In this document: one piece after another, positions 2,049 through 54,708 of the stretch
How positions within the stretch are numbered: the first letter of the stretch is position 1
Layout of the letters: every line of letters begins with the position of its first letter
DNA from: Escherichia phage AidaStucki_Bas93
Sequence record: PQ850593.1
DNA length: 64,000 nucleotides
Direction: 5' to 3' (one strand)
Made by a program: the position numbers and the translations under genes
The notes under the pieces: generated by a model
Told to the model about the DNA's origin: nothing
What the model saw: the letters and a program-made list of their open reading frames with translations, nothing else
Database searches by the model: none

Positions 2049-2801
2049 ATGGCAATGCCAGATGTTCAATACCCCATCAATACCTATGGGTGGCTAAAGA
2101 AGGCCGTGGCCCTCTGGGCAGATAGGGACGATGACGAATTTGTTAATCAAATTCCAAACTTTATTAACTTTGCAGAGAAAGAGATTTATCGTAACTTACG
2201 TATCCCTCCTCTGGAAAAAGAAGTGTACTTAGATATTAAAGATGGAGTAGCTTACATTCCTCCTGATTACTTAGAAGCTCAATGGATGATGAGAGCCAAA
2301 GATGGTACAATCTTCCAAGTAACATCTCCTGAAGAGATTAGCTATCGTAGACAGCATGGAACAATTAACCCATCTCATTGGAATAACCAACCTGTTAACT
2401 TTGCTCGTTTCGGTAGTCGTTTCATTTTCTACCCTAGCATCGAAGCAGACACTCCGTACTATCCTGATGATGGAAGTCCTTTGATTCCAGCAGAAAACTC
2501 AGTAATTCTTAGTTATTATGCAGACCCACCGGAATTTCATGAAGATACAGATACCAGTGCTATCCTTACTATTGCACCAGAACTTCTTCTGTATTTCACT
2601 CTACGTCATGCTTGCTTGTTTGTTCAAGATGATAATGGAGTTCAGAAATGGTCAGCATTAGGGAAAGCTATCCTTGATGAAATGGTAGAACAGAATAAGA
2701 AACAAGAGTACTCAGGTTCACCTATCGCAATTCCGAATAACATGACTCGACTTCAGAGCAGCTTGCCTGATATTTATGGTATTCGTACTTCTCGTGTATA
2801 A
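2049..2801 (+). CDS. hypothetical virion protein
   Basis: 250-aa ORF in the structural block with SD (AAGGAGGacaacctATG); no recognisable motif. Confidence 0.5.
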   Translation: MAMPDVQYPINTYGWLKKAVALWADRDDDEFVNQIPNFINFAEKEIYRNLRIPPLEKEVYLDIKDGVAYIPPDYLEAQWMMRAKDGTIFQVTSPEEISYRRQHGTINPSHWNNQPVNFARFGSRFIFYPSIEADTPYYPDDGSPLIPAENSVILSYYADPPEFHEDTDTSAILTIAPELLLYFTLRHACLFVQDDNGVQKWSALGKAILDEMVEQNKKQEYSGSPIAIPNNMTRLQSSLPDIYGIRTSRV

Positions 2802-2810
2802 GGAGATAAT

Positions 2811-5369
2811 ATGATCGTTTATAATAACCAAGCACCTGATGCAGTGAATAACGTTGGGCAGTTTGGTGCTACTGAAGGCTCTATCGGAGCTTACAAGCAA
2901 GCGGCAGAATATGCAGCTGATTCTAAGTATTGGTCACTGTTGGCAGAGGCTAAGTTTGGTACAGTTGATGACTTGATTGCTCAGGTTGAGATTCTATACA
3001 AACAAGGTGTTCTATTAAGAGAAGATATTGAAGACTTAAAACAAGACTTCATTGCACAAGATGCTCGTTTGATGAACCTCATTGCTCAAACTAACGCAGC
3101 TGTAGCTGATGCAAATAATGCAGTTGCTCTGATTAATCAGAAACTTGTAGAAGTTCAGAATCAACTCGACGTTCTGTTGGGAATGTCTGTTGACGTAACT
3201 ACACTTCCTCCGGGAACTCCGGCTACTGGCTCTTTTAATCCGAACACTGGTGTAATCTCTCTGGGTATCCCAGAAGGTGATCCCGGAAAGGATGGTTCTG
3301 TTACTGACCTATCTGCTGCTCCTACCGGTACACCGGAGCTGGGGGACATCGGTTTCTATGTTGACAAAGATGATAACATTGTTCACAAAACAACTCTCGA
3401 AGATATTGCAAACCTGATCCCATCTGTTCGTTCTGTTTCAGTTAACGATGGCCCTGCGCTTGATGGTGAAGTTGCTCTTACACTCAACAAAGAGACGGTA
3501 GGTCTTGGGAACGTTTTGAACGTGGCTCAGTACAGCCGCCAAGAGATTAATGATAAGTTTGACAAAACAACTAAAACCTACCAATCGAAAGCCGAAGCTG
3601 ATGCGGATGCTCAATACCGACAGGTAGGAGAAAAGGTTTTGGTGTGGGACTCAACGAAGTATGAATTCTATACTGTTGCAGCGAATAAAACCCTTACTCC
3701 GGTTAAAACAGAAGGTCGTATCCTAACTGTTAACTCCCGTGCTCCTGATTCAACTGGTAACATCGATATCGTAATCCCAACAGGAAACCCATCTTTGTAT
3801 TTAGGGGAGATGGTAATGTTCCCTTATGACCCAGCTAAAGCTGTCTCCTATCCGGGCATTCTTCCTGCGGACGGTCGTTTGGTGTCAAAAGAATCTGCTT
3901 TGGATTTAGGCCCATCCCTTATCAGTGGACAACTCCCTGTTGTTTCTGAAACAGAGTGGCAAGCTGGTGCTAAGCAGTATTTCTCTTGGGGTAAATTAGC
4001 CGATGGCATCACTGATGCAGATTCTACTAACTATATCAATATCCGTCTTCCTGATTGGACAGGCGGTGAGGCTATTCGATCCCCTGATTCTGTAAAAGAT
4101 AGTGCATATAAAGGTAATGTTCAAAGTCAGGTCCCTTATGTAGTCACTGTAAATAACCAAGCTCCTGATGAGATTACAGGTAACGTCAATATCTCCAGAT
4201 CTATCTTAGGTGCTGCTGCTGCTGGTGCAAACTCTGATATAACATCTCTCGCAGGGCTTACAACAGCGCTTTCTGTCACTCAGGGTGGAACAGGTGCAAA
4301 GAATTCCAATGATGCTAAGGTAAATTTAGATTTAGACAGAATAGAGCAAGGTTCTGGAGAGACTAAGATCCTATCTCCAAATAAAGAAACCTACATGTTT
4401 GTTGATAATGACGGGTGGGGTTGTTACCGTACCACGGCTGGGTTGGTCGGTACTGTAGCTTTGTCAGTTGAGAGAGGGGGCACTGGAGCAACAGATGTTG
4501 CTAGTGCAAGAGATAATCTAGGACTTAAATCTCTTTCTACATTAGATATTGTTCCAGTAACAAAAGGTGGTACAGGTGCTAGTGATGCTGCCGGTGCAAG
4601 GTTTAATTTGGGGTTGGGAAATGTTTCTACTCTGGACAACGTACCAATCGCTAGTGGTGGTACAGGTGCTAGTGATGCTGCCGGTGCCCGAAGCAACCTC
4701 GGAGCGCTGAGTAACACTCCAGCAAACACAGGTGCAGGTAATACTGGTGCGCGAGTCCAACATGCCACCGGAAGAGGTCTGTTTACTTTAGACATGTTTA
4801 ACTGCTACTGGTATATGCAGCCAGAGGATACTAACTTCTGGGTTGCCCACGGTGTGTCATATGCAGGGCCTAATGGCGAAGCCTCAGAGTATGGTCGTAT
4901 ATCTTACGCAATAAAGATTGCAGATGGAACAACAAAATATGTCCATTGTCTTACAAACAAAAACACCATCATTGATACAGGCGGATTTATCAAAGCGGCA
5001 TCTCCGGTAGTTAACATTTATGCCAACGGTCGGTATGAAACGAACGATGAGTCTGAGGGGGTTAGTGTCATCCGGCAGGGTATTGGTGAATATCTGATTA
5101 CCGGTTGCCTCGGTCTTAACTCTGATGCAAGATGGGGTGGGGTGGATGGGGGGTTTGAAATCCCAACAGATCGCAACAAGCAACCTAGGATTTGGCTGGA
5201 CTATGAGGTTAAAGAAGATGGTTCTATTTTAGTTAAAACCTATCACAGAACTCACCCAACCTCTCCAGTTTTTGCTAGAAACGAGATAGAAGGTTTTTCT
5301 GATGGGGACCCTATTGATATTCCAAGTGATGCTTTTATCTCAGTTCGTGTAGAGATGCCAGCTGAGTAA
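2811..5369 (+). CDS. tail fibre protein with collagen-like GGTGA repeats
   Basis: 852 aa; repeated GGTGA(S/T)DAAGAR.NLGL motifs typical of phage fibre proteins; N-terminal coiled-coil region. Confidence 0.65.
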   Translation: MIVYNNQAPDAVNNVGQFGATEGSIGAYKQAAEYAADSKYWSLLAEAKFGTVDDLIAQVEILYKQGVLLREDIEDLKQDFIAQDARLMNLIAQTNAAVADANNAVALINQKLVEVQNQLDVLLGMSVDVTTLPPGTPATGSFNPNTGVISLGIPEGDPGKDGSVTDLSAAPTGTPELGDIGFYVDKDDNIVHKTTLEDIANLIPSVRSVSVNDGPALDGEVALTLNKETVGLGNVLNVAQYSRQEINDKFDKTTKTYQSKAEADADAQYRQVGEKVLVWDSTKYEFYTVAANKTLTPVKTEGRILTVNSRAPDSTGNIDIVIPTGNPSLYLGEMVMFPYDPAKAVSYPGILPADGRLVSKESALDLGPSLISGQLPVVSETEWQAGAKQYFSWGKLADGITDADSTNYINIRLPDWTGGEAIRSPDSVKDSAYKGNVQSQVPYVVTVNNQAPDEITGNVNISRSILGAAAAGANSDITSLAGLTTALSVTQGGTGAKNSNDAKVNLDLDRIEQGSGETKILSPNKETYMFVDNDGWGCYRTTAGLVGTVALSVERGGTGATDVASARDNLGLKSLSTLDIVPVTKGGTGASDAAGARFNLGLGNVSTLDNVPIASGGTGASDAAGARSNLGALSNTPANTGAGNTGARVQHATGRGLFTLDMFNCYWYMQPEDTNFWVAHGVSYAGPNGEASEYGRISYAIKIADGTTKYVHCLTNKNTIIDTGGFIKAASPVVNIYANGRYETNDESEGVSVIRQGIGEYLITGCLGLNSDARWGGVDGGFEIPTDRNKQPRIWLDYEVKEDGSILVKTYHRTHPTSPVFARNEIEGFSDGDPIDIPSDAFISVRVEMPAE
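4566..4684 (+). repeat. perfect 32-bp direct repeat inside the tail fibre gene
   Basis: ggtggtacaggtgctagtgatgctgccggtgc occurs at 4566-4597 and 4653-4684, encoding the repeated GGTGASDAAGA peptide. Confidence 0.6.
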
Positions 5370-30309: not shown

Positions 30310-30803
30310 TTAGTGTGTATGCATCCAATTTAACCCAATCTGACAATCAGAAGCCAGAGGACATTCCATGTTCAAGTACTCACCAGCCTTCTTAACACAA
30401 AGCTCGGTGTACTCTTTGAGTTTCTGTACATCATTACGGTTCACTGAGAACTGGCCCTCATCGTGCATATCAATTACCTTAGCACAACGAACTCCATCTT
30501 TCTCAATCCACTTGTTAAGGAACATCATAGCATATTTCATAACAACAGCACCAGCACATTGCAGGAGTGTGTTAAGGGCTTTATGAACCATAACCTTACC
30601 AGTGGCATCCCGTCTCATTGTAATCTTACGACCATCAACGCCAATCAAATACCCTTGAGCAGCTTTCTCTGTCATACGATCAATGAGGATTGCAATACAT
30701 GGGTTCTCTGCCAAGAAGCGTGCTCGCATCACTGAACCTTCGTCAGCTCCACCACCTACGATTGAACCAAGTTTAGCATCACCAGCACCATAGTTAAACG
30801 CAT
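30310..30803 (-). CDS. DNA polymerase (family A, T7-like), 3' exon; 5' boundary is approximate
   Basis: Translates to ...NYGAGDAKLGSIVGG...GVDGRKITMR...ALNTLLQCAG...MHDEGQF...NWMHTH, in line with the T7 gp5 C-terminus; the frame is open upstream of the track start to a TGA at 30805-30807. Confidence 0.6.
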
Positions 30804-31509
30804 CTCATATATTCGACAAGAGCCGCAACACTCTCGCCCGTTCTCTTATGAACTGCTACATGTCGCCATGTAGGATAGACTATATCATCACCCTCTATCG
30901 AGGGGTTGGGCGCTTCCACCGGCATTAGCTTCCGGCGTACTCCTTTCGGATAGTCGTTGCACCTTCAAGTATTCTATAGCTGTTTCTAATCGGCTAACAT
31001 CATCTTTCAATAGCCCTAAAGCTCTGTTGCAGTTGTGACACAACAGACCGCGTATTACTCCGGATTCATGGCAATGATCAACCACAAGTTTAATTCTGTG
31101 ATGTGTTGCCATTACAAACCCTTCGCCCTTACAGATAGCACACTTCCCATCCTGATCAGCGTACATCTTTTCGTAATCGCTGGCTGTGATTCCATAAATT
31201 CGTTTGAAGTAGGAATTTCTCCAGCCCCTATCTTTGCATTCATCAGAGCAATAATGTTCAGATGGTGCATTTGGTTGAAAATCTTTTGAGCAATTACGAC
31301 AAGGTTTTGGATTGAACCGACCTTGAGGGTATTTACTTGCCTCAGCAGTCTGTTCTTCTTTAGTTTTAGTTACAGTTGTATATTCCATAAGCACCTCCAT
31401 GTTGAGTTGCTATAGAATACTTGCTTGGCTCAGGATTGTCTACTAGAGAGTTTCCCTGAGTTCACCCAATTTAATCGACGAGATTACTCTCGAAGTATCC
31501 ATTTACGTC
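30804..31509 (-). mobile_element. putative group I intron in the DNA polymerase gene, carrying an HNH homing endonuclease ORF
   Basis: About 700 nt interrupt the polymerase frame inside motif B (KTFI | YAFNYGAG); upstream exon ends in U, insertion begins with in-frame UGA, candidate guide GGAUA can pair with exon UAUCU, last base is G. Confidence 0.5.
30888..31400 (-). CDS. intron-encoded HNH homing endonuclease
   Basis: HNH core DGKCAICKGEGFVMATHHRIKLVVDHCHESGVIRGLLCHNCNRALG. Confidence 0.7.
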   Translation of the reverse strand: MEVLMEYTTVTKTKEEQTAEASKYPQGRFNPKPCRNCSKDFQPNAPSEHYCSDECKDRGWRNSYFKRIYGITASDYEKMYADQDGKCAICKGEGFVMATHHRIKLVVDHCHESGVIRGLLCHNCNRALGLLKDDVSRLETAIEYLKVQRLSERSTPEANAGGSAQPLDRG

Positions 31510-32860
31510 AGATAAACGTTTTAGCGTTGTCACGAGTAGGAAGACCAGCAAGTTTCTGGTTGTGGGAGTGGATATCACCTTCAAGAAGGATATCACGATA
31601 CATAATAGCAGAAGCTAAACCACGTTCTGCCAGAGCTTTCTTAGCTGGATTATTCTCTTCGATTGCTTCAGCAAGCATATCCCTACACTCTTTAATGAGG
31701 TAGTGAGCGAGCATACGAAGTTCAAGTCCAGAACCATCATACCCTAAGAATACTTCTTTACCAGCGGGTATGTAATATTTGTAAGCACCTACAGGCTTAT
31801 CTTTCTTCCCCGGCTTACCTTTCTCGTAAATTACGTTAGTACCTTTTCGTATATAACAACCATCAGGAACAACGTTAGTAATAACGAAAGGACGAGAGTG
31901 ATCACTGTCTGAATTATAGTCAGACTCAAACAAACTGCGACACTCATGACCAAACAAACCACGAGAGGGAATATTAACCACGATACGATGTTTGAATCGA
32001 AAAGTTGGCGTAGCGCAGCTGTTAGCTTCTGCCGAAAGTTTACCATCTTCGCGTTCCTTTGCTATGAGTCCACTGATAAGACCTAGCCTGTGAGCCGCTA
32101 CAACGCGCCTCTTAAGCAAACTTCCAACACTCCCTAGCTCGCCCCCTAACCCTTCTTCAAGAGTCTCCTCGAGGTTTGTAGGAGCTGTAGGCCACTTGTT
32201 TGAGGTAGCTAGTGCTATCTTAATCTCATCAAACGTGATAGGTCTACGTCGGTTAGGGTTTAAACCTAAACCAAACACATAAGCCTTCATATAGTTCTTA
32301 GTCTTAAACCTAAAATGCTTCTCTAAGAACCTCCTAATATCTGCGTCAACCATCTCGGCTGTCTGCTTCTGTTTAGCATTACCTCGCATCCAAGCTGAAT
32401 ACCACGCTTGGTATGTTCCATACTTTCGTATATCTTTCTTGATTTCAAAAGTATTCCAAGGTTTCTTTGATACGTTAAACTCTGGAGGAAGAAAACCCTC
32501 ATCCATAAGGGCTTCTTTAACTCGTGCATCTTTCGATGGGTCAAAGTCCACGTATTCAACACAGGTGAATGCTCCACCAATGTCTTCTCTCTTAAGGCCA
32601 ACTCTATCACAATAGGCTTGAGGCCACTTCTGTAAAGCTCCAGACTTCTTAAATGGCTTCATATAAGTAGAGCCATCTAATCTCATCTTAGGTAAGAGAG
32701 GGATCAGTTCTTTGTCGATATTAACAATAATCTCTTTAAGGAGGTGAACATACCACCGAGCATTTCTTCGGTTGAAACTCACTCCGTGCTTCGCTTGCTT
32801 AGAGATTATATCAGCGACAGTCATCTCTGTCAAAAATGGGAGAGCGTCCGGGTTGCTCAC
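31510..32860 (-). CDS. DNA polymerase (family A, T7-like), 5' exon with motif A
   Basis: Motif A LGYDGSGLELRMLAHY and pre-motif-B LEGDIHSHNQKLAGLPTRDNAKTFI; ends at TGA immediately after KTFI. Confidence 0.75.
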
Positions 32861-54604: not shown

Positions 54605-54708
54605 AAGAGCTTCTAGCGAGGATGACAGGGTTCGAACCTGCATACTCCAATTACTTCTTTAACGACCGCTTAGAAGGCGGGGAAGATACATCCTCGCTAG
54701 AAGCTCTT
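54605..54708. repeat. 20-bp perfect inverted repeat enclosing a 64-bp structured core
   Basis: AAGAGCTTCTAGCGAGGATG (54605-54624) is the exact reverse complement of 54689-54708; the core holds two short hairpins including the palindromic GGTTCGAACC. Confidence 0.6.

Follow-up and report, generated by a model that had tools for sequence, protein, structure and literature searches.

A probable mobile group I intron of subgroup IA2 with an endonuclease VII-motif gene in motif B of the DNA polymerase gene of Escherichia phage AidaStucki_Bas93

The family A DNA polymerase gene on the minus strand of Escherichia phage AidaStucki_Bas93, analysed here in a stretch of 64,000 nucleotides from sequence record PQ850593.1 (the window), is interrupted by an insertion of 706 nucleotides which we interpret, with high confidence, as a group I intron (subgroup IA2) capable of self-splicing and mobility. 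The intron extends on the minus strand from G31509, its first base, to G30804, its last base or omega-G, and carries an open reading frame (ORF) for a homing endonuclease. A preliminary description of the window had proposed a polymerase gene split in motif B between 30804 and 31509, with group I features at the boundaries and an HNH-encoding ORF inside. The split, the boundaries and the group I architecture are borne out by the analysis, and the ORF belongs to a protein family other than the one proposed.

The minus-strand polymerase ORF (32860 to 31508), as given by the ORF listing and by reading of the sequence, ends with ...LPTRDNAKTFI followed by UGA. This stop codon, previously assigned to the start of the insertion, spans the junction (31508-31510), being composed of the last exon base, U31510, with which the 5' exon ends as had been described, and the first two bases of the intron. 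Joining base 31510 to base 30803 yields KTFIYAFNYGAGDAKLG and leaves a frame open for 1845 nucleotides, or 614 amino acids plus stop codon, which ends at 30310 and reads ...RDNAKTFIYAFNYGAGDAKLG... across the junction. Exon 1 (31510-32860, minus strand) starts with GTG at 32860, preceded by AAAGGAG, and ends with AAA ACG TTT ATC T, while exon 2 (30310-30803, minus strand, stop codon included) starts with AT GCG TTT AAC TAT GGT and completes motif B. The joined protein of 614 amino acids matches the Pfam family DNA_pol_A with 82 bits, and its C-terminal 194 residues align to residues 496-704 of T7 gp5 (E ~1e-29). As this alignment is free of gaps in motif B, the split Tyr codon corresponds to T7 Tyr526, the established homologue of Phe762 of Escherichia coli Pol I, and the insertion point lies after the first base of this codon.

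The boundaries are fixed to the base by an intron-less allele. Escherichia phage JacquesWildberger_Bas92, a sister phage from the same river, has an uninterrupted polymerase gene of 1845 nucleotides with the junction TTTATCTACGCGTTT, where the window reads TTTATCT|[706 nt]|ATGCGTTT. As zero bases are common to both sides of the junction, the insertion is exactly 31509 to 30804, and it ends in G, as the preliminary description had noted. Identity of the exons to Bas92 is 99.3%, the same value being obtained for exon 1 compared with the intron-less polymerase, and the joined frame translates without a stop and in colinearity with the Bas92 polymerase, from which it differs at one residue. At position +2 a single silent C-to-T change distinguishes the window from Bas92. 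Presence and absence of the insertion between phages 99.3% identical over these exons argues for recent mobility.

Close copies of the intron are known from Escherichia phage ManiMatter_Bas94 (PQ850617.1) alone, the single one of 110 related phage records which covers the insertion. Between 30200 and 33000 the window is 99.6% identical to Bas94 over 2801 nucleotides, with twelve point differences, three of them within the intron. Bas94, an isolated and propagated phage, thus carries the same element. In its GenBank record the polymerase coding sequence (CDS) Bas94_0038 ('DNA polymerase I') is a two-piece join which spans 2551 nucleotides, equal to 1845 + 706, with the 'endonuclease VII' Bas94_0039 inside, and no RNA class or structure is given. 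The annotation as a split gene called for by the preliminary description is therefore already in place as a joined CDS in PQ850617.1, and its view of the insertion as expected biology is in line with an abundant and well-understood class of introns. The text of the BASEL paper mentions only 'homing endonuclease insertions' and contains the word intron nowhere. In IMG/VR, the exact 22-nucleotide string that bridges the 5' junction is not matched.

The group I assignment is carried by a complete set of helices, assigned by inspection of the window sequence and, for the 3' half of the ribozyme, also with the Rfam alignment; all lie on the minus strand. In P1 (31496-31514), the exon contributes UAUCU (31514-31510) and the internal guide GGAUA (31500-31496), a pairing already suspected in the preliminary description, with U31510·G31500 as the splice-site pair. 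The 5' half of the ribozyme (31409-31495), which is recovered by minimum free energy folding and shows compensatory changes, continues with P2 (31492-31488/31483-31479), the 5' strand of P3 (31469-31463), P4 (31459-31454/31435-31430) and P5 (31449-31447/31441-31439). It is followed by the 5' strand of P6 (31429-31428, pairing with P6' at 30962-30961) and by P6a (31423-31409/30980-30966), a perfect and fold-confirmed stem of 15 base pairs closing a loop of 424 nucleotides which contains most of the ORF. The 3' half (30804-30965) comprises P7 (GACUA at 30955-30951 with UAGUC, P7', at 30882-30878), P7.1 (30950-30948/30943-30941) with a subsequent GUA linker, P7.2 (30937-30932/30922-30917), P3' (30912-30906), P8 (30904-30900/30895-30891), J8/7 (UGAUGAUA) between P8 and P7', P9 (30873-30867/30862-30856), P9.1 (30853-30850/30843-30840) and P9.2 (30838-30831/30822-30815). 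The signature of subgroup IA2, namely two extra helices (P7.1 and P7.2) that separate P7 from P3' and are connected by G-U-A (PMC3428280), is present at 30950-30917 as UCC-GAAA-GGA, GUA and CGCCGG...CCGGUG. Unconstrained folding of the ORF-deleted RNA recovers P2 to P9.2 save for the P7 pseudoknot, at -103 kcal/mol and with z=-5.1 versus shuffled sequences. A GACG/CGUC pairing of the P1 loop with J2/3 was dropped as it clashes with P2, and an assignment as a group II intron was rejected on reading frame and structure.

Covariation supports the helices. A first comparison comprised seven homologues drawn from several sites and genes, namely the window intron and those of Aeromonas phage vB_AsaP_MQM1, Salmonella phage Vi06, Pseudoalteromonas phage HP1, Escherichia phage LAMP, Yersinia phage Berlin and Klebsiella phage RCIP0053, aligned with MAFFT after removal of the ORFs. 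Paired cells amounted to 91.2%, versus 35-43% when the partners were slid by one to three columns, and 51 of 76 pairs showed compensatory changes on both sides, a level reached by none of 500 shuffles. The second comparison was restricted to 17 introns at the same position (window, MQM1 and 15 from IMG/VR), aligned together with eight nucleotides of 5' exon; here paired cells reached 97.5% versus 36-42% in the slid controls, with 47 of 73 pairs compensatory and the observed values again reached by 0/500 shuffles. As the structure was derived from the window, the percentage of paired cells is somewhat favoured, a bias of which compensatory counts and slid controls are free. The splice-site U·G is present in all 17 same-site introns, while the pair between exon position -5 and the guide is C-G in 13 and U-A in three, so that the guide tracks the wobble base of the exon Phe codon. 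Compensatory changes affect all six pairs of P7.2 and two of three in P7.1 within the same-site set, five of seven pairs in P3 and all outer six pairs of P6a; P4, P5, P8 and P9 covary too. P7 (GACUA/UAGUC) is without variation and fully paired. A natural variant points in the same direction, with G at 30936 in the window and A in Bas94 turning a G·U pair of P7.2 into A-U and thus keeping it. The terminal G occurs in 24 of 24 same-site IMG/VR introns, an agreement which is not independent as a G was required when the 3' boundary was chosen.

Several observations weigh against this assignment. The covariance-model search with Rfam group I models, which the preliminary description had named as a check, finds the intron at a score short of the default cut-off: RF00028, run on the whole window in E-value mode, gives 43.9 bits (E=6.7e-8) at 30856-31524 as the sole intron match, and a scan of 1.7 kb gives 32.1 bits (E=6e-6) for the 3' half and 18.5 bits for the 5' half, all below the gathering threshold of 50. 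At this threshold, the whole window returns no intron match and a borderline tRNA match only. The shortfall is attributable to the 424-nucleotide ORF segment that occupies the P6a hairpin loop; the ORF-less introns of LAMP, HP1 and MQM1 (intron 1, at the same site as in the window) score 100.8, 75.5 and 75.1 bits, respectively. Furthermore, P10 is weak, with two to three contiguous pairs by inspection: a convincing P10 was sought and only A+1-U and U+2-A or a bulged alternative of six base pairs were found by inspection, which are not conserved across the family. The nearest relatives of the intron beyond Bas94 are only 67-79% identical in DNA, and the exon flanks, with one silent C-to-T change at +2, are without a clear co-conversion tract that would document recent homing. 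The triplet TAT of intron-bearing alleles versus TAC of intron-less Kuravirus alleles at this position was considered as a mark of endonuclease immunity or co-conversion, and supports neither conclusion, as TAT occurs also in T7-like alleles that are intron-less at this site (Vi06 exon 2).

The ORF inside the intron exists as had been described, at 30888-31400 with 170 amino acids in the ORF listing. The ATG at 31400 is, however, an in-frame alternative to a start that is probably the ATG at 31388, giving a product of 166 amino acids plus stop codon (30888-31388, minus strand). This start is favoured because its spacing from the ribosome-binding site GGAGG (31398-31394), five nucleotides before it, the annotation of Bas94 and the N-terminus of the homologue in phage Berlin all agree. 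The product is not a canonical HNH endonuclease, since no HNH model matches the ORF, and Endonuclease_7 (PF02945) is the sole Pfam match at E<=0.01, with 83 bits against a cut-off of 23.6 (E=1.4e-23, residues 61-142). Among solved structures, the best matches are the restriction enzyme Hpy99I and T4 endonuclease VII. The catalytic residues D40, H41, H43, R54 and N62 of the latter align to D104, H105, H107, R113 and N121, and the zinc ligands C23, C26, C58 and C61 align to C83, C86, C117 and C120. The DHHRN and CX2C...CX2C motif is located in the C-terminal half of the protein. A DHHRN family of homing endonucleases has been defined, for which the proteins of phages Berlin, YpP-G and LUZ24 are listed as products of introns within genes for DNA polymerase (Fang et al., 2018; PMC6083498). 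Endonuclease VII-motif proteins are argued to be without the central Asn of HNH proteins and to represent a family of their own, and both share the His-Me finger (beta-beta-alpha-metal) fold (PMC6083498). To gp19 of Yersinia phage Berlin, the ORF product is 58% identical. A second cysteine motif, CX2C...CX3C (C30, C33, C47, C51), is located at residues 30-51 (31232-31301, minus strand) outside the Pfam domain and is found unchanged in the Berlin homologue; it may represent a DNA-binding module of the zinc-ribbon type.

Rather than being confined to a loop, the ORF reads through the core of the ribozyme. It starts in the P6a loop and runs through P6a', P6', J6/7, P7, P7.1, P7.2, P3' and P8, with its stop codon UGA forming the first bases of J8/7, whereby the last 23 codons (144-166) overlap the ribozyme core. 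The ORFs of Berlin and RCIP0053 terminate with UAA immediately ahead of P7, whereas in the window CAA occupies this place and adds 23 residues. In Vi06, where the homologous ribozyme lies at 2545-3021, the ORF is unrelated and without a Pfam match, yet ends with the ribozyme-encoded tail ...STSEANADGSAQPLETE. Its C-terminus EGATTISKESTSEANADGSAQPLETE is the same ribozyme-encoded tail as KVQRLSERSTPEANAGGSAQPLDRG in the window, which indicates that two different endonuclease genes have become joined to one core in an identical frame. A read-through tail of like kind is also present in several IMG/VR homologues which match residues 151-166.

By analogy with the characterized IA2 phage introns and the DHHRN family, the element is expected to self-splice and to home. 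In the polymerase pre-mRNA, which would fold into P1 to P9.2, an external guanosine would attack after U31510, which the guide GGAUA holds in the U·G pair. The exon released in this step would subsequently attack after the terminal G30804, joining ...AUCU to AUGCG... and restoring KTFIYAFNYGAG, with UUUAUCU-AUGCGUUU as the predicted ligated mRNA junction. Such guanosine-dependent splicing is suggested by the intact structure together with the near-identical Bas94 being a viable phage. The UGA at the junction would stop ribosomes that translate the exon at the 5' splice site and keep them out of the ribozyme. As the last 23 codons of the ORF run through P7 to P8, translation of the endonuclease and folding of the ribozyme are predicted to exclude each other on one transcript; ORF/ribozyme overlaps of a similar kind have been described for Pf-WMP3. 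The endonuclease, judged by homology, would presumably cleave the polymerase gene of intron-less relatives present in the same infected cell, close to the insertion site (TTTATCTACGCG), and repair from the intron-bearing copy would spread the element.

Mobility is the part of this reading for which another explanation deserves most consideration, namely that the intron splices while the ORF no longer encodes an active homing endonuclease, being a decaying passenger or co-opted, for example as a splicing helper, so that the element is fixed rather than mobile. The tail of 23 amino acids dictated by ribozyme sequence, beginning with CAA where Berlin and RCIP0053 have UAA, would fit with such a state, as would the existence of ORF-less derivatives of the same intron (MQM1, LAMP), the annotation of the homologous region of RCIP0053 as overlapping CDSs (2922-3152 and 3091-3357) and the lack of a visible co-conversion tract in the exon flanks. 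However, the ORF is of full length, preceded by a good ribosome-binding site and intact at all of C83, C86, C117 and C120 and D104/H105/H107/R113/N121; like tails on the Vi06 ORF and on several IMG/VR homologues indicate that the tail is tolerated, and the presence/absence polymorphism between 99.3%-identical phages suggests recent mobility. We regard an inactive ORF as unlikely.

Far less probable is a truly split gene, in which a free-standing endonuclease gene lies between two polymerase genes whose products assemble without RNA splicing. Split phage genes with intervening homing-endonuclease genes are known, and many endonuclease relatives in IMG/VR are without a detectable group I core and probably free-standing. 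Here, however, the break is inside a codon, and exon 2 possesses neither a start codon nor a ribosome-binding site at the junction; its first in-frame start, GTG at 30732, is 24 codons downstream, and its use would lose YAFNYGAG of motif B. In addition, the approximately 280 nucleotides of non-ORF sequence around the ORF constitute the covariation-supported ribozyme. An intein or other in-frame insertion at the protein level, for which conserved polymerase motifs are often targets, is refuted by the reading frames, as there is a UGA in frame at the junction with further stops after it in the polymerase frame, the ORF is in another frame with its own ribosome-binding site and a Pfam scan shows no intein or Hint domain.

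The mobile group I intron thus proposed for the window has its closest known ribozyme relative beyond Bas94 in a different host phage. The first polymerase intron of Aeromonas phage vB_AsaP_MQM1 (OQ628262.1) is located at the identical insertion point TTTATCT|AT, uses the same P1 guide and has a core that is about 79% identical, with all helices kept by compensatory changes. In contrast to the window intron it is 289 nucleotides long and without an endonuclease gene, with a remnant of the ORF 3' end in P6a, and has been termed only a 'putative intron' (PMC10410586). The introns of Yersinia phage Berlin/YpP-G, Salmonella phage Vi06 and Klebsiella phage RCIP0053 resemble the window intron as IA2 introns in motif B of a family A polymerase with the ORF in P6a. 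They differ in being inserted five nucleotides upstream (ACGTT|TATC, in the Phe codon), in having the guide GGCGUC or GACGUC and in lacking P2; the ORFs of Berlin and RCIP0053 end before P7, and the Vi06 ORF is unrelated to that of the window. The Berlin ORF has been cited as an intron-encoded DHHRN homing endonuclease (PMC6083498).

As to the remark of the preliminary description that similar introns are known in T7-group polymerase genes, the true relatives are the motif B introns of Berlin, Vi06 and MQM1, while the classic T7-group intron of PhiI/W31 occupies another site. The PhiI/W31 intron, which is self-splicing, shares with the window intron its subgroup IA2, its location in the family A polymerase gene of a coliphage and the placement of an endonuclease ORF in P6a, but is inserted in motif C rather than B. 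Its endonuclease is I-TslI of the HNH family, reportedly described by Bonocora and Shub in 2004. The T4 introns in td, nrdB and nrdD (sunY), the paradigm of homing, are likewise of subgroup IA2 with ORFs looped from peripheral helices, but reside in other host genes and encode other endonuclease families (GIY-YIG; HNH in I-TevIII). Position 881 of E. coli Pol I, the site of the PhiI/W31 intron (PMC3428280), is matched by the insertion in Escherichia phage PE006. The polymerase gene of this phage harbours an intron unlike that of the window, equipped with a homing-endonuclease gene of its own (approximately 3361-3937; 28.7 bits with RF00028), at CAT|GAT of the HDE motif C, whose equivalent in the window, at about 30463, is empty.

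A further insertion in the same polymerase gene is found in Escherichia phage LAMP (Kuravirus), with exons 99% identical and a homologous IA2 intron at 3004-3307. With 304 nucleotides, no ORF and the guide GGUU, it lies 12 nucleotides downstream of the window site (AACT|ATGG), and the exon between both sites (12-17 nucleotides) shows several silent differences of LAMP compared with the window and Bas92. In many further records of Kuravirus the polymerase gene contains insertions that vary in length, seen as hit spans of 2279-2885 nucleotides versus 2095 nucleotides without insertion. The gene has the appearance of a hot spot for introns. In RCIP0053, group I signals at 2281-2533, 2821-3495 and 3850-4496 lie in and around one polymerase gene annotated as 'hypothetical proteins', and the endonuclease VII-type ORF of the middle intron may be frameshifted. 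In Pseudoalteromonas phage HP1, a close ribozyme homologue without ORF (2457-2773) lies not in a polymerase gene but in a primase-helicase-like gene, where it splits the Walker A motif (GSGV|GKS), and a second group I match (approximately 3220-3501; 57.9 bits) follows about 450 nucleotides downstream of the first.

Uncultured phages extend this picture. IMG/VR contains 290 relatives of the endonuclease, and among the best 80 of these 290 loci, 49 are in polymerase motif B. The insertion is in TT|T of the Phe codon, the site of Berlin and Vi06, in 14 loci, which are T7-like; in T|AT of the first Tyr codon (Tyr526-equivalent), the site of the window, in 26; and between a Leu/Asn codon and the second Tyr codon in nine. 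Eleven loci have a group I core motif in another context, and 20 have no group I core motif. LAMP adds a fourth position, T|AT of the second Tyr codon, one base beyond the third. At each position the guide fits its own exon, as in Berlin (GACGUU/GGCGUC), the window (UAUCU/GGAUA), the IMG/VR locus L014 (UUCCUU/GGAGGAA) and LAMP (AACU/GGUU). Of twelve loci sampled among those without core motif, ten had no group I signal around the gene, namely L011, the closest protein relative of the window endonuclease with 68% identity, and nine of the other eleven, including L024, L041 and L045; such loci are probably free-standing versions of the endonuclease family.

These observations raise the tentative possibility, on which we would not yet insist, that the window intron belongs to a large family, to all appearance not yet described, whose homologous IA2 ribozymes and endonuclease VII-motif genes are staggered over four or more positions in a stretch of 17 nucleotides of motif B, with guides retuned for each site. 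No description of such a family was found in the searchable literature, whose coverage leaves out many relevant papers, and no paper therein links Kuravirus or phiEco32 with introns. Should the proposal be true, the family would represent a natural series in which ribozyme and endonuclease are re-targeted in steps of a few bases about a single conserved sequence, and the codon commonly used for PolA typing (position 762) would often be intron-split in uncultured phages.

With respect to significance, the element is one more probable mobile intron aimed at an essential gene where its DNA is most conserved. The residue at Tyr526 of T7 and Phe762 of E. coli governs the discrimination of dideoxynucleotides and serves in the classification of family A polymerases of viruses; as its codon is split here, unrecognized introns can corrupt residue-based surveys. 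Gene callers report a truncated polymerase ORF of 450 amino acids, an 'endonuclease VII' and a leftover fragment, and the Rfam default threshold misses the intron, which gives its recognition annotation value. Bas94 with and Bas92 without the intron, 99.3% identical over the polymerase region, constitute a matched pair for homing studies in E. coli.

Two minor features of the window are recorded in addition. The borderline Rfam tRNA match at 54617-54695 (minus strand) scores 29.7 bits against a cut-off of 29 bits (E=0.038), and ARAGORN predicts no tRNA in the whole window; a spurious match or a degenerate tRNA-like element is the probable explanation. Within the first 20 codons of the polymerase gene, at 32805-32833 (minus strand), lies a perfect sigma-70 consensus promoter (TTGACA, a spacer of 17 nucleotides and TG-n-TATAAT; 12 of 12 matches, extended -10), placed downstream of both annotated starts, GTG at 32860 and ATG at 32824. 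It might be the source of an internal or N-terminally shorter transcript, or may just be a strong early promoter overlapping coding sequence.

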